IMG/VR virus record: IMGVR_UViG_3300016480_000004
DNA from: a virus
Lineage: Duplodnaviria; Heunggongvirae; Uroviricota; Caudoviricetes; Crassvirales
Reading direction: 5' to 3' (one strand)
DNA: 64,000 bases
The notes under the pieces are model-generated. The model did no database searches and was not told where the DNA came from. It worked only from the letters and a program-made list of their open reading frames with translations. A program made the position numbers and the translations under genes. The stretch's first letter is position 1, and the number at the start of each line of letters is the position of its first letter. This document shows positions 4,322-26,332 of the stretch, piece after piece.

Positions 4322-4594
4322 TTATTGCCCCTCTTCTCCTAATTTATTCCAAAATTCATCCTCAAGTAGTAAAATAGGTTGCTCTATACTTACTCCATGA
4401 GCTAAAGCTCCAGCAACATCAAGTAAAGCAATAGTAAGTCTTTGGGAGTCTGTAAACTCCCATTTATTAGACTTACATTGCTCTCTTATACTTATTAATT
4501 CCTTTCTAATCTCCTTAGCAAAGCTTAGATTGCAAGTACACATTCCAAAGGATTCTAATAGTTCTTCATTACTCAACAACATATTTAACACCAT
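4322..4594 (-). CDS. Hypothetical protein
   Basis: ORF track. Overlaps the start of the next gene. Confidence 0.3.
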   Translation of the reverse strand: MVLNMLLSNEELLESFGMCTCNLSFAKEIRKELISIREQCKSNKWEFTDSQRLTIALLDVAGALAHGVSIEQPILLLEDEFWNKLGEEGQ

Positions 4595-5195
4595 TGAAGA
4601 TAAGCTGTTTAATTGTATTAATATTAACCAGTCTTTCGCCAGTTTCTTTTGGACCTCTTACAACATCCATATCCATACATTTGTACTTACCATCCCTTGA
4701 TACAAACTGCATCTTGTAGCCTCTTAGTACCCTATCTTCACCTTCAATAAAATCCTTAATAGGGTTATTCTGAATGTGTTCCAGAGCTTCTTTATAAGCT
4801 GTAGCCATTGACTTTTTGGCTTTCTTAGCCTTATCAATTAGAGCTATAGCCTCTTGTCTTTGTGCTTCCCTCTCAGCTTCATACTGCTTCTTGATTTTAG
4901 CTTTATCCTGCTTTTGGAACACAACAGTAAATACCTCAGAAGATTTGATACCCTCAAATATTGTCCTTATACCCGGAGTACCATCTTTCTTATCTTCTTT
5001 AGTTACTTTTACTTCTTTGTCATACTGGTCAGAAGTATTAAGCAGGTCTTGAACATAACCATAACCTAATGTTACTGACTTTCCACTCTCTGTATGTTTG
5101 AATTTGATTGTATCTTTACCAATCTCTTCAACAATGTAATGTGACTCTTCTGAGAATACATCACCTACTGCTATCTCTTTAATATTGATTTTCAT
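4569..5195 (-). CDS. Hypothetical protein (K/E-rich)
   Basis: ORF track. Confidence 0.45.
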   Translation of the reverse strand: MKINIKEIAVGDVFSEESHYIVEEIGKDTIKFKHTESGKSVTLGYGYVQDLLNTSDQYDKEVKVTKEDKKDGTPGIRTIFEGIKSSEVFTVVFQKQDKAKIKKQYEAEREAQRQEAIALIDKAKKAKKSMATAYKEALEHIQNNPIKDFIEGEDRVLRGYKMQFVSRDGKYKCMDMDVVRGPKETGERLVNINTIKQLIFNGVKYVVE

Positions 5196-5206
5196 TGTTC
5201 TTGATT

Positions 5207-5974
5207 TTAATCTATTACTTCTTTTGAATAAGCAGTATATACTGCACTTAATTCTACATCATCCTTTACAGAATCCATAGTAGCCTTATACATAGCCTTT
5301 GTTCTTGTTCCTCCTCTACTTAATGCAGCAGCTTCTATTACTTGAGAAGTTTTACCACTATTCTTGAAGGGAACACTCACACCATTTGTCATAGCAGAAA
5401 GCTTTTTATACCATTCAACATACATAGGGTTAATAGTCATAGTATCAAATTTGATACCCAATTCACTGGCTTTCTGAGCTTCTTCCCTCCAATCAATTTG
5501 GGCATTCTTTACAATATTTCTGTAACTATACCCCACCTCATGAGGTGCTGCATCAGCAATCAATAATACTGCTTTAGTAGAACCTTGTCTCCATGTAGTT
5601 TCCTCAGTGATTTTCTTAATGACTAATTCATAGAACTCATCACCATCTCCACCACTTGTATTTTGAGCCTCATTGATAAACTTGATGATTTCATTTTCAT
5701 CATTGGTCAGACCTAATACTTGATAAGCATTACCAAAGTTATCCTTACTATCCATATCATAATAGTCACCAAATGCTACTATACCAATCCTTAAATCAGG
5801 ATTAGAACTAAACAGTTTGGGAACTAACTCCTTCACATGGGTCTTAACTGCATTAATATAAGTTGACATAGAGCCAGTTGTATCAAATGCAATTACCATG
5901 TCAAGCATACCATCAGTAGTAGATGATTCTACTACTTTAGGCAGCTCTTTTGTCTTAATTAAATTTGTTCTCAT
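5207..5974 (-). CDS. vWA (von Willebrand factor A)-like domain protein
   Basis: MIDAS-like D-T-T-G-S motif (AFDTTGSM) and IGIVAFGDYYD. Confidence 0.55.
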   Translation of the reverse strand: MRTNLIKTKELPKVVESSTTDGMLDMVIAFDTTGSMSTYINAVKTHVKELVPKLFSSNPDLRIGIVAFGDYYDMDSKDNFGNAYQVLGLTNDENEIIKFINEAQNTSGGDGDEFYELVIKKITEETTWRQGSTKAVLLIADAAPHEVGYSYRNIVKNAQIDWREEAQKASELGIKFDTMTINPMYVEWYKKLSAMTNGVSVPFKNSGKTSQVIEAAALSRGGTRTKAMYKATMDSVKDDVELSAVYTAYSKEVID

Positions 5975-6216
5975 TAAATGAACTTTTCAAGATTTGACAT
6001 AAACTCTTGAGCCTCTTTCTGAGTTTCAGATATGAAACCTATTTCATCCTCAAGGAGTTTTACCTTTTGTTTTTTACTGTTAATATCTGACTGCATTTCT
6101 GCATTCAATTTTGAAGCATCTTCATGTGCTTTCTTAAACATTGATTTTACTCCAGTCAGCCTTTCCTTAAATGAAGGCTCCGCAATTACTGCTTGTTTCT
6201 TACTTCCAAATGCCAT
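5974..6216 (-). CDS. Hypothetical coiled-coil protein
   Basis: ORF track. Confidence 0.4.
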   Translation of the reverse strand: MAFGSKKQAVIAEPSFKERLTGVKSMFKKAHEDASKLNAEMQSDINSKKQKVKLLEDEIGFISETQKEAQEFMSNLEKFI

Positions 6217-6234
6217 TGTTTCTTTTTCCTTAAG

Positions 6235-7092
6235 TTATACAATATAGTTTCTTTTAATAAATTCTTTATGTAGAGGTTGTGCCAGTTCTCTTGCTTGAGG
6301 GTGAGCACTGCCTGCATCTCTCAACTTAAAGAAATGCTCCCAATCACTTATAAAACCCGTCATTACTAACTCTGTCTTAAGTGCATTAGGCAACACTGCT
6401 CTTGCTTGTTGGGAAACCCAACCATCCTCTAACAATTTTAAGTATCTTATTTCATTGTCATACAAACCACACAAGAAATTAATTTCAATATCAGTTAAGA
6501 TTCCATTAGCATTATACATAAGTTTAGGATTATTTTCATAATCCCTTATATTAACATTAGTACACCACTGAGGGAGTATATAAGTAACACCCTGAAACTT
6601 ATCCTTAGAATAGTTACAATACCTTGTACTCTCTTGAGCAAAACTAAATACTCTATGCCTTACAAACTCATGACTTACCCCTCTATCACAAATAAACTTA
6701 ACTGTGATTCTCTTCTTATGATACTCTGTAGGATTACATTGATACTTTAATAAATCTAACCAATCATTCTCAACTAATACTCTATAGTTAGTAGTAATAT
6801 AATACAAATCAGTAGAGGAAACAAATGTTATTTCACTATATTTATTATTAGCTAATTCCCACAATCTCCCATCTTCAAGGTCTAGTTCTACTAATAGATA
6901 TACAGTACCATGCTCCAACATAGCACCATGACCTGACTTAATCATTCGTTCCACAAACTCTTTAGCAGAAGTTTCTGTTATCTTATCCTCAGATTTATAA
7001 CATACTCTTCCTGCCCTTTCAATCTGTTTGTAAACCCCTTCAAGACCTTCTTGTTGGTCCCAAATTTCAAAACTTGGTTTAATTAATTTCAT
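6235..7092 (-). CDS. thyX: Flavin-dependent thymidylate synthase
   Basis: ThyX signature RHR-x7-S (RHRVFSFAQES). Confidence 0.7.
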   Translation of the reverse strand: MKLIKPSFEIWDQQEGLEGVYKQIERAGRVCYKSEDKITETSAKEFVERMIKSGHGAMLEHGTVYLLVELDLEDGRLWELANNKYSEITFVSSTDLYYITTNYRVLVENDWLDLLKYQCNPTEYHKKRITVKFICDRGVSHEFVRHRVFSFAQESTRYCNYSKDKFQGVTYILPQWCTNVNIRDYENNPKLMYNANGILTDIEINFLCGLYDNEIRYLKLLEDGWVSQQARAVLPNALKTELVMTGFISDWEHFFKLRDAGSAHPQARELAQPLHKEFIKRNYIV

Positions 7093-7319
7093 TCTTCCAA
7101 TATTACAATTTCATCAAAATCAACTTTCTTAGGAAAGTCCTGTCTTCTCACCTTCTCTTCAAGGGCTTCCTTAATTTGTTCCTCCTCTGCATCTGGGGAT
7201 AATTCAACCTCATCATAATATGATATGGTTACACTCACAAACCTCCTATGTTTTACATCAAGAGATTGATTCCAAGGTGCTCTGGGGTCTTCATCAGCCC
7301 CTAATGGTGCATTGTTCAT
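7089..7319 (-). CDS. Hypothetical protein
   Basis: ORF track. Start overlaps the upstream stop by 4 nt. Confidence 0.4.
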   Translation of the reverse strand: MNNAPLGADEDPRAPWNQSLDVKHRRFVSVTISYYDEVELSPDAEEEQIKEALEEKVRRQDFPKKVDFDEIVILEE

Positions 7320-7531
7320 TCTCTTTTCCTTTTTTTAAGTTTCTTAATATTTATCTCTAAATTATTCTCCTTTATCAGTCGAGCTGCAATAACACTTTCA
7401 AGTTTTAATGGGATACTAATATGTCTTCCTTTTTCATTAAGGTAGATAGCATGGTCTCCATTATGTCTGTCATAATAGAAACTATTAGCTACTACCACCC
7501 TAACAAACTCTCTATGTGTAAATTGTTTCAT
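7316..7531 (-). CDS. HicA-like (YcfA family) mRNA interferase toxin-like protein
   Basis: Matches the HicA pattern: ...NSFYYDRHNGDHAIY...GRHISIPLK...IAARLIKE. Confidence 0.45.
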   Translation of the reverse strand: MKQFTHREFVRVVVANSFYYDRHNGDHAIYLNEKGRHISIPLKLESVIAARLIKENNLEINIKKLKKRKRE

Positions 7532-7532
7532 T

Positions 7533-7844
7533 TCATGATATTACTTCTTCATAAGTTACCACTTGTTCAGCTATAAGAGCATTACAAGGGGGTACAATCA
7601 CTTGTTCAATTCTTGTTACTTTATACAGATGTGAACTCCCATTATATATACCATTACCCTTCAAGAGCATTTCTGCTTGTTTAGGATTAGTAGCCTTACA
7701 CACTGCACATCCTTTACCTATACCAGTAACTTCATATTCTATAACCCAGAGTTGCATTGCTCCATCAGGAGCACACTCCATATCTACCCTATCTCTATTA
7801 GGGAGTACATTATTTGGGGCACAATAAATTCCTTGTACTGCCAT
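7533..7844 (-). CDS. Hypothetical protein (possible antitoxin partner of the HicA-like gene)
   Basis: Lies directly upstream of the HicA-like gene with a 1-nt gap. Confidence 0.35.
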   Translation of the reverse strand: MAVQGIYCAPNNVLPNRDRVDMECAPDGAMQLWVIEYEVTGIGKGCAVCKATNPKQAEMLLKGNGIYNGSSHLYKVTRIEQVIVPPCNALIAEQVVTYEEVIS

Positions 7845-17729: not shown

Positions 17730-18395
17730 TTAATACTCTGAGAACCAAATAATTGGCTCTCCATATTTTTCTTTAGTTAATTTGCTTACTTCTTGAAATA
17801 CAGTAGATGGCATCCTTTCTTCTTGTCTTGCATAGTATGCAGGATGCTTCTCTTCCAGTATTATATTGGTATCCTTATTGATATAAGGCTTAAGTGTCTT
17901 AGCCTGTTCACCAAATAGAACATATATAATACCAGTCTGCCACTCTGATAGACTCTTTAGTAACTTGGTCATGAAAGGTCTCCACATCATTGTATGGCTA
18001 CCTACCTTATTCATTTCACAAGTCAGTGCAGAATTAATCATTAATACTCCTTGCTTAGCCCAACTCTCTAAAGTGGGGTCAAAGATAATACTATTATGTG
18101 GAACTTCAAAATTAATGCAAGCCTCTTTAACTATTTCAAGAGAAGGAGATAATTTAGTCCCCTCCTTGTTTCCAAACAGGACACCAGTAGCCACATCCTT
18201 TTGTGGATATGGGTCTTGTCCTATCATTACAACTTTAAGGTTGTTGTAAGGGCACAGATTAAAAGCCTTAAATATATCAGGATATGCAGGACAAAGTAAA
18301 TCTCTTTTAATTAAACTTACCTGTCCTACTACCTTATTTAATTCTTTTGTATCTATAACCCTTACCCATCCACCAAAATATTCCTCAAATGTCAT
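17730..18395 (-). CDS. ung: Uracil-DNA glycosylase (family 1-like)
   Basis: GQDPYP (GQDPYH-like water-activating motif) and VLMINSALT. Confidence 0.7.
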   Translation of the reverse strand: MTFEEYFGGWVRVIDTKELNKVVGQVSLIKRDLLCPAYPDIFKAFNLCPYNNLKVVMIGQDPYPQKDVATGVLFGNKEGTKLSPSLEIVKEACINFEVPHNSIIFDPTLESWAKQGVLMINSALTCEMNKVGSHTMMWRPFMTKLLKSLSEWQTGIIYVLFGEQAKTLKPYINKDTNIILEEKHPAYYARQEERMPSTVFQEVSKLTKEKYGEPIIWFSEY

Positions 18396-19201
18396 AATAT
18401 ATAGGTCATTTGTACAACCTCATCAAGGTGCTCCAGAAGGTAATCATTCATAGCCTCATTATTGAATGTAGAAGGAGTGGGTTTTTTAGGTTTTACTATG
18501 AACCTACCAGTTACATCAGCTACTACTATCTCAGGTATAGGCGAGGTATAACCACCAGTAATCCTACCATATTCATTTCTTATAGGTATAGTAATCTCCT
18601 GATAAGTAACTCCTTCAATATTAGCTCTATCTATCCTAATACCCTCCTGTACAAATGCAGGAATGACAGTCTTAATGATACCTTTCTCAACTATACCATT
18701 ACTAACAAAGACCTTTGGATTCACATAGATTCTACCAGTTTTGTAGTGTAGAGTTCTATCTTCCATAACTCCATGAAGTGTGTACAGTATTAATATGTTA
18801 TAATCTTTGTCAAGAATATAACCATTACCACCATAATATACCTCACCAGTATTAGTTGTAATCTTCATAAGCCTATCTCTAGTATCATTCATCAGGAATG
18901 TCTTGAAGATTGCATTTGCGGTTCTTCTTGTCTGAGCATAACTATTCTCAAATAAAGTAACAGCCACTTCCTTTAAACTATTAGGATAATTGTAGTTACT
19001 CAATAATCCTTCCTCAACTCTATATTTGCACATTAGTGGAACATCAATTTCTGGTCCACTAATATCCACTCTTAAAAATAGAGTGAACACATTATTGTTT
19101 TCAAGTACAAGATGGGGTTTAATATAGTCTGGGAATTCAATAGCACCTCTATTAAGAAATATACCATGAAGTTGCCTGTTTAATTGTACACTTATTGCCA
19201 T
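18392..19201 (-). CDS. Hypothetical protein, translationally coupled to the E1-like gene (TAATG overlap)
   Basis: Its ATG overlaps the E1 stop by 1 nt. Beta-rich sequence. Confidence 0.45.
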   Translation of the reverse strand: MAISVQLNRQLHGIFLNRGAIEFPDYIKPHLVLENNNVFTLFLRVDISGPEIDVPLMCKYRVEEGLLSNYNYPNSLKEVAVTLFENSYAQTRRTANAIFKTFLMNDTRDRLMKITTNTGEVYYGGNGYILDKDYNILILYTLHGVMEDRTLHYKTGRIYVNPKVFVSNGIVEKGIIKTVIPAFVQEGIRIDRANIEGVTYQEITIPIRNEYGRITGGYTSPIPEIVVADVTGRFIVKPKKPTPSTFNNEAMNDYLLEHLDEVVQMTYIL

Positions 19202-20109
19202 TACATTTCTACTTTAAAGTACATTGTATCAGCAGAATATTGAGTCATAAAAGGCACATCCCTATCTATAATAGGATTACATTCATTAGCCACGAAGTTT
19301 ACAAACAGATTGACCATTACTGATGCAATCATATTTGCCATAAAGGTTGTCTGTTTGTAGCTACAGATAGTTTCATCTGCTACTGCATCACTGAATAACC
19401 ATTTACTTCTGTACTCTCTCATAGCTCTTAAATCATTGCCTTGAATAGCAAATACTTGATATTCTTCTGCTGCCAATCTACCATCAATAAATAAACATTT
19501 TCCTCTCTCTTCCCCAGCTTTGGACATTAGTCTATCTTCCCAAGCATTAAAGAATAGTTCTCTTGCTTCCATATTATCAAAACCACAAATCATAATATCT
19601 GTAGCTTCACTTTCAGTAGTAAACCTTTCCTGATAGGAAATGGAGTTATAAAAGTTTGCATACTGTTGCATCATACTATTGAGAGCATAAACTTTTTCCT
19701 GTCCCAAATTATGATTACCATATAATTGACCAGACATATTAGCCTGTTCAACTATGTCTGGGTCATATAAATATAATATAGCAGGTTTTAATCTTGCAAG
19801 TAGGAAACCAACATAACTTCCAATACCTCCTACACCAGCTAAGGTAATAATTTTAGATTGAATGGCACTATACCAGATAGCTCCACTGAATCTACTTGTA
19901 GTTTCATCTACAAGTAAACTACCTGAATTAGGTGGAATTACTACTTCCTCAGCAGCTAATGCAGCTTCAAGTAATGCTTCTCCTTGTTCATCTATCTCTA
20001 ATGGAGCATCCTCAGTATTCTGAGCATCATGCAGCAAATCAGACCAATCCAAAGGTTCATCAACTATTTGGTTTCTATCACTTTCTAATACTTCTTCTTC
20101 CATAATCAA
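19201..20109 (-). CDS. E1-like ubiquitin-activating/ThiF-MoeB family adenylyltransferase
   Basis: Rossmann nucleotide loop LAGVGGIGSYVGFLLARL, YDPDIVEQANMSGQ (matches DFDVVELSNLNRQ), D..DN..AR motif (GFDNMEAR), and a conserved Cys region (ETICSYK). Confidence 0.75.
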   Translation of the reverse strand: MIMEEEVLESDRNQIVDEPLDWSDLLHDAQNTEDAPLEIDEQGEALLEAALAAEEVVIPPNSGSLLVDETTSRFSGAIWYSAIQSKIITLAGVGGIGSYVGFLLARLKPAILYLYDPDIVEQANMSGQLYGNHNLGQEKVYALNSMMQQYANFYNSISYQERFTTESEATDIMICGFDNMEARELFFNAWEDRLMSKAGEERGKCLFIDGRLAAEEYQVFAIQGNDLRAMREYRSKWLFSDAVADETICSYKQTTFMANMIASVMVNLFVNFVANECNPIIDRDVPFMTQYSADTMYFKVEM

Positions 20110-21347
20110 ATAATATAATCATCCATTAATTTGATATAAACACTTAACCAAGGGTTCTTTGGTAATTTCTCAAGTTCTTCCCTCACATCATGTGCCAATA
20201 ATGCAGCCATAGTGGAATCATCATTACTAATAACTGCCATGACATCTCCATCATAGGTATAATTAATAAGATAATCTACATAGGTTGATGCAAAGTATTC
20301 AAACACTTTGACACTTCCGAACCTCTTTCTATAAAGATTCTCCATAGAATTAGCCCACTTCTTGACATCAACTGCACTTTCATTTGAAATGATAATACTT
20401 GATGTAACAAGCTGTCTTACAATAGACTGGACTATATCTTTATCCACTGTTATAATACCATAAGGAATGTCAAAATTCTCTTCCTCAGGCTCTTCAAATG
20501 GTAGCTCACTTTGTTTACCAGATGTTTCCTTAACTTCTTTAGCTTTATACCAGCCTCTTCCTTCTTCCCCATAGTATTCGTCTTTGTACATAGGAAATGT
20601 ACTCACTACCTCCTTGATTGGAGCAATATTGTTACCATAGTTACCATATTGAGGACAACTACTTTTATATAAAGGAACAGTTTTCTTTTTAGACTCTTTG
20701 ATTTCCTTGAGTCTCTCCATCATTTCAGTCTCAAAGTTATCAGTTGCATCTTCAAATACTATATCCAGATTAAACCATTCAAGTTTTTCTTCTTCAATGT
20801 CAAAAGTCTCTACTCCCTCTCTTACTTCCTCATTCCAAGTAGGATAAGTATATTTCTCAGATACAGTCTGTACACATTTGTACTTCCTTGTAATACCAGC
20901 AGTATATTTACCTGCATTATTAACAATCAAAGATACAAAGTGAGCCATATCATTACCTTCTGCACTTAGAGTGGATGTATCAGTACCACTAAAGAATGTA
21001 GCCATATTATTATGACTATGGATTAATCCTTGGTATATCCCCTCTTCCAATAATTCAGGATGGTCTACCATATATGTAGCCATATCAGGAGATACATTGA
21101 ACTCAGTATATGCACTTGTACCAATGTCCATTTGGAACAAATCTACACATCTGATAGTTAGGGACTTATCTTCAAAAGCTCCCTCAACTTTATAGAACAA
21201 GATACCTGACCATTCTACATCCCAGATGTTCTTGCATAAAAACCTTATCTTTTTCTCAACCTCTGCTGGAATGACAATCTTAAATATATCTTGTCTGTGG
21301 ACTAACTCCAGTACTGGTTTCACTTCTTTCTTCTCTTCCATATCCAT
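20106..21347 (-). CDS. JAMM/MPN+ (JAB) metalloprotease domain protein with a C-terminal extension
   Basis: Exact JAMM motif H-x-H-x7-S-x2-D (HSHNNMATFFSGTD) with an upstream Glu (PAEVEKK). ATGA overlap with the E1 gene. Confidence 0.75.
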   Translation of the reverse strand: MDMEEKKEVKPVLELVHRQDIFKIVIPAEVEKKIRFLCKNIWDVEWSGILFYKVEGAFEDKSLTIRCVDLFQMDIGTSAYTEFNVSPDMATYMVDHPELLEEGIYQGLIHSHNNMATFFSGTDTSTLSAEGNDMAHFVSLIVNNAGKYTAGITRKYKCVQTVSEKYTYPTWNEEVREGVETFDIEEEKLEWFNLDIVFEDATDNFETEMMERLKEIKESKKKTVPLYKSSCPQYGNYGNNIAPIKEVVSTFPMYKDEYYGEEGRGWYKAKEVKETSGKQSELPFEEPEEENFDIPYGIITVDKDIVQSIVRQLVTSSIIISNESAVDVKKWANSMENLYRKRFGSVKVFEYFASTYVDYLINYTYDGDVMAVISNDDSTMAALLAHDVREELEKLPKNPWLSVYIKLMDDYII

Positions 21348-22614
21348 AATTTAATATTCTTAATATACTACATACTATAGTTTCAATATACTGTAGATTT
21401 AGTATCCTTGTTCTATTGAGAGATTCCTCCTCTGAGGATAATACTCCATCAATAGTCAAGGTAATCTCCCTACCTTTGAATGTACAGATTTTCTCTCCTA
21501 TATATCGCTGGTAGTCATTACTACTACCCCTTCTGGATGCTCTTGGTATATAGACTTTACCATTGGTTATGATACATTCATTAATAACACCTAAACTAAC
21601 AAGGTCAGTATAACTAATGTCAAAAGTATGTTTGTTATACTCAGTATTATACCAGCTAATAAATTCATTACTGATAAGAACTACTGTATCAATGAAAGAC
21701 ATTCCTAACCCATAACTTCCATTACTATAGTTGAATCTAAGCTTCTTAGTCTTCAGAAGGTATTCAATGAATGGTTTGAATTGTTCTTTTCCAAATACAT
21801 TGTTGTAATGAACTGTTCCTACAAGAGCCTGCATAGAGAATTTATCTCTAGCATCTCCCATCTCTGGTGCAGGAATATTCTCAAGTCTGCGGTGTGGGAC
21901 CCCATCAATAGATTCCACTCTTACATATCTATCAAGCTCCAGACACAATAACTGCCAAATGGCTTCATCATATCCTATAGCTAATGTAGATAAGGTTGAA
22001 TTAATAGGTCCTCTACCAGTACAGGGTGTTTGGAAATTCTCAAAGTTACCTCTTGGAATAGAAGCTACATGACTGTGCATATATCCATACTGGAATTGAT
22101 TCAGAGGATAATTAGACCTGTTCACTCCAAAATAACCCTTACCCTTTCCCTGCCAATTGAATGGAACTTTAAGCCATAAATCCCTAATATCCACATACTT
22201 ATCATATTCATTTGTAATCCTTACTGTAGGAAAATAAATAAGAATGAATAAGTCATTGAACCTACTATTAGCAATCTTCTCCTTTATTATTGGCAAGAAA
22301 TATTTAGCTAATGCAGAGTCACTTACAGCAGTTTCATTATTAGCACCTTCTGCTGTCCAAAAGAGATTTATTATATCTCGGTCTTCCTTATTCATATTTT
22401 GATAAGCAGAAGAGTCTACTATATTACTCCATTCCAGGAGTGTTCCTAAGGGGGTCTCACTAAGATATGTATATAATTCATCCTCAGTAAGAAAACCTTG
22501 CATCTCTACTCTCCCCTCACCAAAGAAGTCTTGAAAGAATTGTAGGATTTGATTTGGTTTTTCCATGATACTACTATGTAGTTCATGAACTTGTTTCTTT
22601 ATCTCTTCGGTCAT
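21280..22614 (-). CDS. Hypothetical protein; first gene of the E1/JAMM operon (weak E2/UBC-like H..H...C segment)
   Basis: Its 3' end overlaps the JAMM ORF. The segment MHSHVASIPRGNFENFQTPCTG loosely resembles a UBC HPN...C core. Confidence 0.35.
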   Translation of the reverse strand: MTEEIKKQVHELHSSIMEKPNQILQFFQDFFGEGRVEMQGFLTEDELYTYLSETPLGTLLEWSNIVDSSAYQNMNKEDRDIINLFWTAEGANNETAVSDSALAKYFLPIIKEKIANSRFNDLFILIYFPTVRITNEYDKYVDIRDLWLKVPFNWQGKGKGYFGVNRSNYPLNQFQYGYMHSHVASIPRGNFENFQTPCTGRGPINSTLSTLAIGYDEAIWQLLCLELDRYVRVESIDGVPHRRLENIPAPEMGDARDKFSMQALVGTVHYNNVFGKEQFKPFIEYLLKTKKLRFNYSNGSYGLGMSFIDTVVLISNEFISWYNTEYNKHTFDISYTDLVSLGVINECIITNGKVYIPRASRRGSSNDYQRYIGEKICTFKGREITLTIDGVLSSEEESLNRTRILNLQYIETIVCSILRILNYGYGREERSETSTGVSPQTRYI

Positions 22615-22619
22615 TGCAT

Positions 22620-22670
22620 GATAAAAAAAAAATGAGGGGGAAGGCTTATTCAGCCTCCTCCCTCACTGGT
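22620..22670 (-). terminator. Rho-independent terminator (minus strand) between the 226-aa gene and the E1/JAMM operon
   Basis: GC-rich stem GAGGGGGAAGGC / GCCTCCTCCCTC with a 7-nt loop, followed on the minus strand by a T10 run. Confidence 0.55.
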
Positions 22671-22675
22671 TTTAC

Positions 22676-23356
22676 TTAGTCAACAAAATCAAACATCTGG
22701 TTGATTTCCTCCCTTGACATCCCTTCAGGTGCTTTATAGGTAGTACCTTTCAGTACAGCCATAGCCCTGTCATAAGTGCCTTCTTCAATAGCATCACTGC
22801 CATAAAGGTCTTCCAACAGAACTTCCAATGCACCTGCAACATTACCCTCAGAAGTTGTAGTCACCTCAGGTTTCTCTTCCTTTACTGGTTCTTTTGCTAC
22901 TTCTTTCTTTGCAGATTTTTCTTTCACAACCTCTTTCTTCTCCTCTTTTACAGGAGCACCTTCACCCAACAGGCCAATCAAGTCCTGAGTTTTACACATG
23001 GTGAAGTTCTTTCCAAATCTCTTTACACACTCATCCTGCAAGCCTCTTGCCTTGATTGCATTGTAGGCTTCTGCCCTTGACATTGCACCAGACTTGATTT
23101 TCTTCTCAGGTGCAGTCAGCAGGAATGTCAAATCATTTACTACTTGTCCTTTGTAAGGAATATTGGTAGGAAGGATAGAAGCATCATCTTTCAATTCTGC
23201 TCTCAAATGACCTTCAAAGAATGTCATTCCTTCATATTCAATACCTGCTTCTCTCATTTCTCTTTTCAACTCACCCAGTGTAGTTGCAGCAGATGCCTGA
23301 ATAACTTTTTGAGACTGAGTTTTGTTGTTGATGATGGTTACTTTTCTAAATTCCAT
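22676..23356 (-). CDS. Hypothetical protein with a predicted N-terminal beta-grasp-like ~90-aa domain, a K/E-rich linker, and a C-terminal domain
   Basis: Alternating beta/alpha pattern in residues 1-90 and a low-complexity KE linker. Lies upstream of the E1/JAMM operon. Confidence 0.4.
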   Translation of the reverse strand: MEFRKVTIINNKTQSQKVIQASAATTLGELKREMREAGIEYEGMTFFEGHLRAELKDDASILPTNIPYKGQVVNDLTFLLTAPEKKIKSGAMSRAEAYNAIKARGLQDECVKRFGKNFTMCKTQDLIGLLGEGAPVKEEKKEVVKEKSAKKEVAKEPVKEEKPEVTTTSEGNVAGALEVLLEDLYGSDAIEEGTYDRAMAVLKGTTYKAPEGMSREEINQMFDFVD

Positions 23357-23381: not shown

Positions 23382-24377
23382 TTACCTATTAAATAGGCTT
23401 AAAATTATTTCTCTGAATTGTTCTTTGTCTCCTATTGTTTTATAGAGGTCTGAGACATCTTTTCCTCCCTCAAAATGAGGCAATACTATGTTAGTGAACC
23501 CAGTGGATACTGATAGTTTCTCTCCATCTATGAGACCAGCTTTATCATTATCCAATAAGATAAATACTTTCTTGTATCTTCTTTTAAGTTCATTAACAGC
23601 AGTATCACTGATACCATAACCCTCTCCTTGAATGGCTATAGCTGGTATTCCAGTGTTTGCCCATAGACATAAAGCATCTTTCATTGAGGAACAAATACAT
23701 ATCCTATCCCCAAATTCAGGCACTTTAGTCCATAAGCTAATTACTGACCTATCATGCCTATTGGACCACTTATATCCCTTCTGATTAAATGGTTGATATA
23801 TCTTTAAAGTGACTTTCCCTTCCTTATATTCTACATAAGCATAAGCATATCTATCTGCTGGAAAGACCATTCTGGACTCTCCTTTTATGATTATCTTATA
23901 GGATATAGGATAAATGTCAGCATATTTCAACCACTCTAAAGTGATACCAAATGAAGCCCAATACTCAAGGTCATACTCTCTCCATTCCCTTGTCTTACAT
24001 TGTAAATCAAGGTTAGAACTATATTCCTTATTAGTGACAATCTTAGGTTTACCTAATGTACTATAGCCATTAGTCTTAGTAATCTTGGATAAGTCCCCCC
24101 AAACATGTGCAAGCACATCATTGTAACTCTCCCCCCAATACTTACCTAATAAATCAAATGTTCCCCCTCTATCTTTTGTAGCCAAGTCTGTCCAATGTAT
24201 CTTCTGACCATCTATGCTATAAAAACCAAAGGATGGATGGTTATCAGGTCTTAATGGACTTGATATAATACAGGGGACATTACTTACCCCAAAATAATGG
24301 TTCAGAATATCTAATTCTGATACCTTTGATAAAATCTCTTCTAATCTGATATTAGGTTTACCTATACTAATAGCCAT
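23382..24377 (-). CDS. DNA primase (zinc-binding + TOPRIM)
   Basis: Zinc-finger region C..RPDNHPSF (DnaG-like CPFH..TPSF). TOPRIM motifs ...QGEG and LLDNDKAG. Confidence 0.7.
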   Translation of the reverse strand: MAISIGKPNIRLEEILSKVSELDILNHYFGVSNVPCIISSPLRPDNHPSFGFYSIDGQKIHWTDLATKDRGGTFDLLGKYWGESYNDVLAHVWGDLSKITKTNGYSTLGKPKIVTNKEYSSNLDLQCKTREWREYDLEYWASFGITLEWLKYADIYPISYKIIIKGESRMVFPADRYAYAYVEYKEGKVTLKIYQPFNQKGYKWSNRHDRSVISLWTKVPEFGDRICICSSMKDALCLWANTGIPAIAIQGEGYGISDTAVNELKRRYKKVFILLDNDKAGLIDGEKLSVSTGFTNIVLPHFEGGKDVSDLYKTIGDKEQFREIILSLFNR

Positions 24378-25717: not shown

Positions 25718-26332
25718 TTATACAAATTTCCATATATAATTACCAGCACTTTTCCTTCTACCATAACAGCATTCTCCAATATTAGAACCATTGACTCCTG
25801 TAATTTTAGAAGCCTCAGTTATACTATTATAAGAGTTTATTAATACTCCAGATTTATCATACTGTTCTACTGGTTTCCTAACTGAATCTAAAAATTTCCT
25901 TGTTTTTACAATAACTTTCTTAGATAAAGTATCTTTAAGTTTAAGAATCTGTTCCTCACTTTTAGGAACTCCTAAATGAGCATTTTTCATCTTCATCTTT
26001 GTTTCCTCAGTGTGTTTGAACCCACTTAAACTTTCTCCTCCAATAGTACAATTATACCCATCTTCAAAAGAATTAAACTTCCTAATATAATAAACTTCAA
26101 GTTCATTAAGTATCTTCTTTGCTATCACTTCATCTATGTAATCTCCTTTATGGAGAACTTCATAAATAAAATTTTCTGGCTTATATCTGTGCCTTGCATT
26201 ATCTATTTTCTTCCCTCCATAACTGCAATTTAAGTTATAAAAGAATTGCTTCCTTACAGCTTCATCTATAGTTTGTCCTATATAACTTTTACCAGAAGGA
26301 GAAATATATCTGTAAATAATGCCAGTAATCAT
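25718..26332 (-). CDS. GIY-YIG homing endonuclease
   Basis: N-terminal GIIYRY...SYIGQT (GIY-x10-YIG). Confidence 0.65.
   Translation of the reverse strand: MITGIIYRYISPSGKSYIGQTIDEAVRKQFFYNLNCSYGGKKIDNARHRYKPENFIYEVLHKGDYIDEVIAKKILNELEVYYIRKFNSFEDGYNCTIGGESLSGFKHTEETKMKMKNAHLGVPKSEEQILKLKDTLSKKVIVKTRKFLDSVRKPVEQYDKSGVLINSYNSITEASKITGVNGSNIGECCYGRRKSAGNYIWKFV

Follow-up and report, generated by a model that had tools for sequence, protein, structure and literature searches.

A putative five-gene cassette for ubiquitin-like protein processing and conjugation in the replication module of crAss-like phages

What would an E1-like adenylyltransferase and a putative JAB/JAMM metalloprotease, encoded side by side, do among the replication genes of a phage? 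The question is raised by the crAss-like virus record IMGVR_UViG_3300016480_000004, of which a stretch of 64,000 nucleotides (the window) was analyzed; the region in question shares 90.7% DNA identity with the Bacteroides phages PhiCrAssBcn1-24 and belongs to Kehishuvirus (crAss001-like; Steigviridae, Crassvirales). A prediction made from the letters of the sequence (the original prediction) had described four coupled minus-strand genes, two of them for the E1-like and JAMM proteins, and had suggested a phage-side conjugation/deconjugation system, for instance one that modifies virion or host proteins or counters host Ubl-based defence. The analysis presented here, which determined directly which genes are present and in what order, to which families or folds their products can be assigned, which residues are invariant and that close relatives are confined to phage-like contigs, indicates that the region is probably the enzyme part of a five-gene phage cassette for the processing and conjugation of a ubiquitin-like protein (Ubl), located inside the DNA-replication module.

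Gene layout, distribution and the two enzyme families

The four predicted open reading frames (ORFs) of 444, 413, 302 and 269 aa are present in the ORF list (Table 1), and by gene coordinates they do lie between genes for a primase (23382-24377) and a uracil-DNA glycosylase (UDG; 17730-18395). One more gene, encoding 226 aa (22676-23356), is situated between the primase gene and the 444-aa ORF and belongs to the cassette, so that the four genes are real but the module comprises five. The overlap claimed for the 444- and 413-aa ORFs was recovered and measures 68 nt, and the TAATG shared by the stop of the E1 gene and the start of the 269-aa gene, which are translationally coupled, is seen in the sequence. 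The ATGA junction described for the JAB and E1 genes was an error: the sequence reads ...ATT TGA TTA TGG..., with either a TTG start over the TGA stop (TTGA) or a first ATG 3 nt past the stop. The counterparts in crAss001 are gp79 (226 aa), gp78 (444 aa), gp77 (413 aa), gp76 (302 aa) and gp75 (269 aa), where gp77 is annotated as "contains metalloprotease domain" and gp76 as "thiamine biosynthesis protein, ThiF". None of the papers in the collection searched links crAss-like phages, FpV4 or gp75-gp79 to ThiF, JAB or ubiquitin-like conjugation.

The gene order Ubl fusion, E2-like, JAB, E1 and fifth gene is fixed in ~170 loci, down to identities of 17-35%, and always lies among replication genes; except in loci truncated by a contig end, the 444-aa gene is directly preceded by the 226-aa gene. 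Outside the crAss-like phages, the cassette recurs in the Flavobacterium phage FpV4 (Fipvunavirus), whose E1 is 34% identical, and in Dulem virus 41, where the E1 identity is 36%; in both it adjoins genes for a primase, UDG and a RecE-type exonuclease. Among 185,579 species genomes scanned, full-length relatives occur on eight contigs of metagenome-assembled genomes (MAGs) alone, all carrying cassette genes and mostly phage-sized where complete (several of 88-111 kb; one 640-kb 'Bacilli' contig), while the remaining matches are generic short ThiF proteins without partners. Capture of the cassette from a bacterial system was therefore rejected, as this confinement to cassette-bearing, mostly phage-sized MAG contigs argues against recent capture from host defence. 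On the 640-kb contig, from a 'Bacilli bacterium' MAG (L176; JBMNLZ010000002.1:15069-29725), a whole diverged cassette plus UDG (E1 40% identical) lies ~15-30 kb from the contig end, which is explained either by a prophage-like integration or by chimeric assembly. The N-terminus of the Ubl-fusion ORF at this locus is unusual in being rich in Cys.

A link to Xanthomonas/Erwinia jumbo phages, whose E1 is 26% identical, was rejected as evidence and kept as a lead only, since hhalign did not connect their proteins with the Ubl and E2-like families of crAss-like phages. In PhiXhv-15 (L084:3817-4242, 4322-7000, 7013-7696), a 141-aa ORF ending in ..LTAIAKASGG at its stop codon and an 892-aa ORF with IHPH...C-L-G were noticed by eye; ligase and topoisomerase genes flank this E1 neighbourhood, in which no obvious JAB gene was seen.

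By its sequence, the 302-aa protein is a member of the E1/ThiF superfamily, as had been proposed: Pfam ThiF (PF00899) is matched at E 1.3e-12 (47.8 bits, gathering cut-off 28.1), and an invariant Cys lies where the crossover loop is expected. All motifs quoted in the original prediction were found, namely LAGVGGIGSYVG, DPDIVEQANMSGQ and GFDNMEAR in this protein and HSHNNMATFFSGTD plus an upstream Glu (VEWSG) in the 413-aa protein, and these four motifs are invariant across 17 homologues with identities down to ~42-58%. Likewise, G92-V-G-G-I-G97 (the GxGxxG loop, nt 19819-19836), D116 (the acidic residue that follows strand 2), the conserved Lys K139, and D178 and R183 of the Mg-binding D-N-x-x-x-R motif are invariant in the 17 crAss homologues and are kept in the E1s of FpV4, Dulem virus 41 and the Xanthomonas phage. 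C249 (nt 19363-19365; ET[IV]CSYKQTTF) does not vary among the crAss-like homologues, and FpV4 and Dulem virus 41 have it too, while its counterpart in the Xanthomonas phage is one alignment column off. Matched by spacing to UBA5 Cys250/ThiF Cys184 at the crossover-loop site, C249 is a candidate catalytic Cys.

When the E1 family profile was compared with the PDB, UBA5 ranked best (5.8e-12), followed by PaaA, TcdA, MccB, MoeB (2.3e-9), ThiF (3.9e-9), UBA6/7, BubCD and Cap2, the Rossmann half alone being aligned. The PADLOC matches of the 302-aa protein, to CBASS E1-E2 models (1.8e-9) and BilD (1.2e-4), likewise cover the generic Rossmann segment alone. In NCBIfam, ThiF models scored best (9e-15; 54.9 bits, cut-off 159) and PRTRC_ThiF (TIGR03736) third-best (3.1e-9; 36.5 bits, cut-off 144.75), with MoeB at 26 bits (cut-off 449) and 6A-MBL cap2_3 at 28 bits (cut-off 320). 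These scores are far under every equivalog cut-off, hence the E1 is not a cofactor-biosynthesis orthologue; with replication genes as neighbours, the ThiF/MoeB cofactor pair that had been named as the competing assignment was not found. The N-terminus of the E1 in the window (19900-20109) lacks a segment of ~70-80 aa that is present in crAss001 gp76 and the PhiCrAssBcn E1s (369-385 aa; comparison set L001/L002/L220), and the E1s of other clades have still larger, unrelated N-terminal inserts (403-442 aa); judged by these alignments, the E1 N-terminus is a hot spot of domain gain and loss.

The 413-aa protein has a complete JAMM site, E45 ... H110-x-H112-x7-S120-x2-D123 (nt 20979-21020), with the exact spacing and the upstream Glu that had been described, and the site is invariant in the 17 homologues. 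The motif is also carried by the FpV4 and Dulem virus 41 homologues, both of which match Prok-JAB (the latter at 23.5 bits). The best PDB match of the JAB profile is P. furiosus JAMM1, which is weak (E 0.28), with an alignment that runs through the motif. The protein continues in a C-terminal extension of ~240 aa, which includes a conserved, helical-looking domain at aa ~290-413.

The Ubl fusion, the E2-like protein and the fifth gene

A search of the neighbourhood for a Gly-bearing Ubl, the existence of which the original prediction had anticipated, led to the N-terminal domain of the adjacent 226-aa protein. In an AlphaFold2 model built from a 138-sequence alignment, aa 1-82 have pLDDT values of 94-98 and the order beta-beta-alpha-beta-beta-beta, and are followed by a less confident tail (aa 82-93, KKIKSGAMS; pLDDT about 67). 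Foldseek against the PDB matched this domain to ubiquitin, SUMO1, UBX, FERM-F1, DIX and B. fragilis ubiquitin, with probability 1.0 and TM scores (target) of 0.5-0.7, at E-values of just ~1e-3. On the strength of the model, aa 1-90 form a beta-grasp domain and a candidate Ubl. Gly90 (codon 23087-23089) is one of three invariant columns in the 138 sequences (34-63% identity), in which K85, K86 and S89 are at least 90% conserved (the KKIxSG tail); the tail reads ..VKSGG in FpV4 and ..KMKAG in a marine relative. The beta-grasp family comprises 754 cluster representatives, and in nearly all of the best 150 the domain is N-terminal, mostly in proteins of ~200-250 aa. No informative family was found for the 226-aa protein in Pfam, NCBIfam, PADLOC or PHROGs (as a single sequence or with 17 diverse members), and no PDB entry was matched by sequence or profile.

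In the AlphaFold2 model, the remainder of the protein begins with a module of three helices (aa 94-131), continues through a disordered linker rich in Lys and Glu to a helical domain (aa 169-221), and finishes in an acidic-hydrophobic end, ..EEINQMFDFVD. This modelled C-terminal part might be either the moiety freed by the cleavage proposed below or the real functional product. C-termini resembling the tail of SSB were also seen in the primase (..DDIPF; L083:3212-4243) and the UDG (..DGLPF; L083:8258-8971) of Dulem virus 41 and in FpV4 gp49 (..EDLPF; L082:7666-8754), and such acidic tails, including that of the 226-aa protein, may mark a shared replisome docking site.

In some loci, the two parts of the 226-aa protein are encoded apart. 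An HNH endonuclease ORF sits exactly after ..KSG in L041, L064, L073, L078 and others, so that the Ubl ORF ends in ..SGKF at a stop codon and the C-terminal half becomes a separate downstream ORF with its own start codon. This natural split right after ..KSG suggests that the two halves can work as separate polypeptides. HNH/NUMOD-type homing-endonuclease insertions were noted at L041:2083-2598 and L064:2568-3041 and also in L073, L078, L153 and L160, that is, in at least two clades, and the conserved DNA that encodes the Ubl tail seems, from these sequences, to be a homing site. A group I intron was considered as the cause of the split and rejected, as Rfam gave none at the site (E<=1), although an ORF-carrying intron could escape detection. 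There is a group I intron at L078:8553-8796 (RF00028, 84.8 bits, E 2.3e-20), downstream of the cassette in the replication module of that crAss-like contig. In the window, a 204-aa ORF on the minus strand (25718-26332) has a GIY-x10-YIG-like N-terminus (..GIIYRYISPSGKSYIGQT..), and its homologues shift position: L002 has its copy in the gap from the SSB-like gene to the primase gene, and L046, L057 and L061 have theirs between the genes for the 193-aa and 159-aa proteins. This is the pattern expected of a free-standing homing endonuclease.

The 444-aa protein was modelled by AlphaFold with a pLDDT of 84.5 and a pTM of 0.69. Its putative UBC-like core (aa ~100-232, nt 21919-22317) is laid out as a helix (100-118), four strands (122-134, 140-152, 163-166 and 168-170), a loop (176-203) and two helices (204-213 and 217-232). 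Residues Y178, H180-S181-H182 (nt 22069-22077), C198 (nt 22021-22023) and G200 are invariant in 62 members, and Y178-x-H180-S181-H182 ... C198-x-G200 map to the loop between strand 4 and helix 204-213, which in the model is active-site-like and makes the protein a candidate E2. The alignment contained 63 locus-derived homologues of 14-90% identity; one, P0523 (the 90% cluster of P0520), was dropped from the conservation counts because it has a JAB motif (..LIHSHNQM..) at 14% identity and is probably a cluster or gene-call artefact of the gene overlap of 60-70 nt. No informative family was found for the 444-aa protein, singly or with 17 diverse members, in Pfam, NCBIfam, PADLOC or PHROGs (all PHROG matches being of "unknown function"), nor did single sequences or profiles match the PDB. 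The AlphaFold model had no significant Foldseek match in the PDB, and hhalign gave no signal between this family and three canonical E2s.

The fifth gene encodes the fastest-evolving member of the cassette, with ~30% identity where the E1 has ~60%. The family of the 269-aa protein has a conserved core, TTN.GE.YYGG.G.I.D, and no invariant Cys or His; no match was found in Pfam, NCBIfam, PADLOC or the PDB, with the 269-aa protein singly or with 17 diverse members, and the PHROG families matched are all of "unknown function". In FpV4 the same slot is taken by gp49, which matches the family weakly by hhalign at the YYGG.G.I.D motif (E 0.011).

The Ubl-fusion gene is set apart from the enzyme genes by an intrinsic-terminator-like hairpin (Table 1), with a folding energy of -25.4 kcal/mol (z -5.1; 0/200 shuffles as good), which was overlooked by a simple terminator scan and recovered by explicit folding. 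A hairpin plus U-run is found at the same position, with other stem sequences, in crAss001, L039, L040, L043, L045, L141 and FpV4. Because of this hairpin, the Ubl-fusion gene probably closes a transcription unit, and retention of the hairpin in several lineages suggests that the substrate gene is expressed differently from the enzymes.

Table 1. Features of the cassette region, in positions of the window
Feature	Position	Strand	Basis or remark
269-aa protein (gp75 homologue)	18392..19201	-	follows E1 in every crAss-like locus examined
E1-like adenylyltransferase, 302 aa (gp76 homologue)	19201..20109	-	core aa ~68-302; ThiF PF00899
Putative JAB/JAMM (MPN+) metalloprotease, 413 aa (gp77 homologue)	20106..21347	-	invariant JAMM site
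Candidate E2-like protein, 444 aa (gp78 homologue)	21280..22614	-	N-terminal helical domain, putative UBC-like core, C-terminal alpha/beta domain
Intrinsic-terminator-like hairpin plus T10 run	22621..22667	-	between Ubl-fusion gene and enzyme genes; RNA folding
C-terminal part of 226-aa protein	22676..23086	-	AlphaFold2 secondary structure/pLDDT, alignments
Candidate ubiquitin-like beta-grasp domain, aa 1-90 of 226-aa protein (gp79 homologue)	23087..23356	-	AlphaFold2 model, Foldseek, conservation

Proposed pathway and alternative explanations

The E1 motifs, the JAMM motif, the Ubl domain with its invariant Gly, the natural gene split and the synteny together make it reasonably probable that the five genes form a Ubl cassette. 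Its operation is our inference, which extends to the cut at Gly90, the adenylation, the transfer by thioester and the target, both that one exists and what it is. The 226-aa protein would be made as a Ubl-fusion precursor, which the 413-aa JAMM protease would cut after Gly90 of the KKIxSG tail, yielding a beta-grasp Ubl of ~90 aa with a free C-terminal Gly and a separate helical C-terminal protein. The ThiF-type E1 (302 aa) would adenylate Gly90 and probably load the Ubl onto Cys249, from where Cys198, in the UBC-like core of the 444-aa E2-like protein, would receive it. Choice of the target would fall to the additional domains at the two ends of this protein, so that it would act as an E3-independent E2, and the Ubl would be joined to this target, for which the 269-aa partner, the C-terminal fragment freed by the cut, and proteins of the replisome or the host are candidates. 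The JAMM enzyme may also undo the conjugation. There is precedent for the cleavage step, as in Type I Bub and Bil a JAB peptidase cleaves the Ubl pre-protein and thereby exposes its reactive C-terminus (PMC11601596), and a similar role for JAB cleavage was predicted for lambda TAPI/TAPK (PMC1779556). A broader proposal, that Bacteroidota phages (crAss-like and related) run their own complete Ubl pathway with a Ubl precursor, a JAMM enzyme for maturation and deconjugation, a minimal E1 and a large E3-independent E2, core to replication and tagging a replisome, DNA-bound or host protein, is put forward tentatively and given slightly less than an even chance.

Several observations weigh against such a cassette. 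The Arg of the N-x-x-R-Q motif, which touches the ATP phosphates and is equivalent to MoeB Arg73, is replaced by Gly127 in the E1 of the window and by Gly or Asn in all lineages: the region reads NMSGQ in the window, NTGGQ in FpV4, NMAGQ in Dulem virus 41 and NLPNQ in the Xanthomonas phage, and 'NMNRLF' of UBA5 is aligned to 'NMSGQL' of the window. With the Arg missing, adenylation may be impaired or non-canonical. The 413-aa protein matches Prok-JAB (PF14464) below threshold (E 6e-4; 20 bits, cut-off 25) and the PADLOC JAB model weakly (E 0.01), most of the Ubl tails finish in a single Ser-Gly rather than Gly-Gly, and the Ubl-fusion gene and the enzyme genes, being split by the terminator-like hairpin, may not form one operon.

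Some of these points also count for a rival reading, in which the beta-grasp domain would be a permanent interaction module of a replisome-associated protein, never cleaved or conjugated, with the enzymes acting on another carboxylate substrate (a peptide, nucleotide or modified base, as with MccB, PaaA and TcdA) or just processing a protein. The E1 profile is equally near to true Ubl-activating E1s and to PaaA, TcdA and MccB, the E1 lacks the canonical Arg for ATP binding, and the hairpin stands between the 226-aa gene and the enzymes; moreover, the C-terminal part looks DNA- or replisome-binding (helical module, acidic tail), and many Ubl folds are non-conjugated adaptors, with FERM, UBX and DIX among the Foldseek matches. 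However, a Gly90 that is invariant in 138 sequences, on a flexible basic tail at the end of the domain, is hard to explain as a passive linker; the natural split at that site is tolerated, the 226-aa gene is never parted from the enzyme genes in ~170 loci, and MccB- or TcdA-type chemistry has no place for an E2-like protein whose Cys is invariant, hence we consider a static adaptor unlikely. The same E2-like Cys speaks against a sulfur-carrier pathway of the ThiS/MoaD/TtuB/CysO type, in which the Gly would be converted to a thiocarboxylate to deliver sulfur for a thio-modified nucleotide or cofactor in phage DNA metabolism. Such a pathway would be in line with the ThiF models that match the E1 best in NCBIfam (9e-15, although far under the cut-off), with its current annotation as 'thiamine biosynthesis protein' and with the location of the cassette among genes for nucleotide and DNA metabolism (ribonucleotide reductase, UDG and primase), and bacterial neighbourhoods in which E1 and JAB genes accompany a ThiS/MoaD-like gene for sulfur transfer are known (PMC1779556). 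Yet the E1 scores fall 5-10 fold short of every equivalog cut-off, the neighbourhood genes that were identified include no noted rhodanese, cysteine desulfurase or sulfurtransferase, sulfur carriers nearly always end in Gly-Gly whereas K-K-I-x-S-G is found here, and a UBC-like protein with an invariant Cys and a big fused C-terminal moiety are a misfit in a sulfur relay; we regard this pathway as highly improbable.

An anti-defence function had been suggested in the original prediction, and in its fuller form the JAMM protein would strip host Ubl conjugates (Bil, type II CBASS or Bub) while the phage Ubl, E1 and E2 would serve as decoys or take over the host pathway. It is common for phages to carry inhibitors that originate from components of host defence, and the E1 matches PADLOC models for CBASS E1-E2 (1.8e-9) and BilD (1.2e-4), as the JAB protein does for JAB, but the PADLOC matches span the generic Rossmann segment alone. 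All characterized bacterial Ubl pathways are anti-phage or located in defence islands (PMC11601596). Anti-defence genes are usually accessory and variable, whereas the position and order of the cassette are fixed in Steigviridae, Fipvunavirus and Dulem virus 41; the distribution of its relatives argues against recent capture from host defence, and a decoy would need no conserved E1 Cys, E2 Cys or Ubl Gly. An anti-defence function thus fits poorly with a cassette that behaves, in several phage families, as an unvarying core component of the replication module, and a counter-defence role is judged quite unlikely.

Significance and comparison with known systems

Conjugation of Ubls in prokaryotes was shown recently and has so far been tied to anti-phage defence (Bil, type II CBASS and Bub), and the phage cassette would shift this chemistry to the virus side. 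If the proposed pathway is true, no complete cascade of Ubl conjugation encoded by viruses of bacteria would precede it, and it would stand in a lineage separate from Bil, Bub and CBASS. Steigviridae are among the most abundant human gut viruses, and the cassette is fixed there as well as in unrelated Flavobacterium phages. As crAss001 and its host are cultivable, the use of protein tagging by a phage, a minimal E1 that lacks the Arg and a large E3-free E2 are directly testable. For annotation, "thiamine biosynthesis protein" is a misleading database entry that is corrected here, and a plausible role is offered for three "hypothetical" core genes of crAss-like phages (crAss001 gp79, gp78 and gp77).

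Among the known systems, Bil (BilA-D) resembles the phage cassette in its composition of Ubl, E2, JAB and E1, in the trimming of a Ubl precursor by the JAB protein and in Cys-based transfer (PMC11601596). In contrast, BilD is a large E1 of the IAD-AAD-CYS type, while the core of the phage E1 is a single adenylation domain of ~235 aa, and Bil defends the host by tagging tail proteins of phages, while the cassette is phage-borne and linked to replication; in PADLOC, BilD was matched at E 1.2e-4 over ~100 aa and the BilA, BilB and BilC models were not matched. Type I Bub (6E.1/DUF6527; BubAB, BubCD and BubE) has its Ubl and E2 in one fusion protein and its JAB and E1 in another, whereas the Ubl of the phage cassette is joined to a helical, non-enzymatic moiety and its JAB and E1 proteins come from separate genes. 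Transfer in Bub runs through Ser/Tyr oxyesters, and Bub resides in bacterial mobile or defence islands, whereas the cassette has an invariant Cys198 in the E2-like protein and Cys249 in the E1 and is found in the replication module of virulent-type phages; profile searches of the cassette proteins revealed no DUF6527/BubE protease. In type II CBASS, Cap2 is an E2-E1 fusion that conjugates the C-terminus of the CD-NTase, with no Ubl involved, while the E1 and E2-like genes of the phages are separate, and no CD-NTase, effector or MBL gene is present among the cassette neighbours.

Mobile elements offer two further comparisons. The PRTRC system of plasmids and integrative and conjugative elements is likewise borne by mobile elements and has a small ThiF-type E1, with JAB-, E2- and Ubl-like partners according to the TIGRFAM descriptions. 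The phage E1 reaches 36.5 bits with TIGR03736 where 144.75 are required, the other four cassette proteins have no PRTRC match at E<=0.1, and there is no ParB. TAPI (gpI) of lambda/T1 is, like the 226-aa protein, a phage protein with a Ubl domain, a conserved C-terminal Gly of that domain, a linker and a second domain, and its partner, the JAB protein TAPK (gpK), was predicted to cut at that Gly (PMC1779556). However, TAPI/TAPK have no E1 or E2, belong to the tail-morphogenesis module and have the JAB fused to NlpC/P60, whereas the phage cassette includes an E1 and an E2-like protein and lies among replication genes. By analogy, the cassette would work like Bil or Type I Bub, yet by gene content and profile scores it falls outside Bil, CBASS-II, PRTRC and ThiF/MoeB, from which it is distinguished by five traits: the fusion of the Ubl to a non-enzymatic helical moiety, the Arg-less E1, the large E2-like protein with HSH...C, a fifth protein of unknown function, and its home in a phage replication module.

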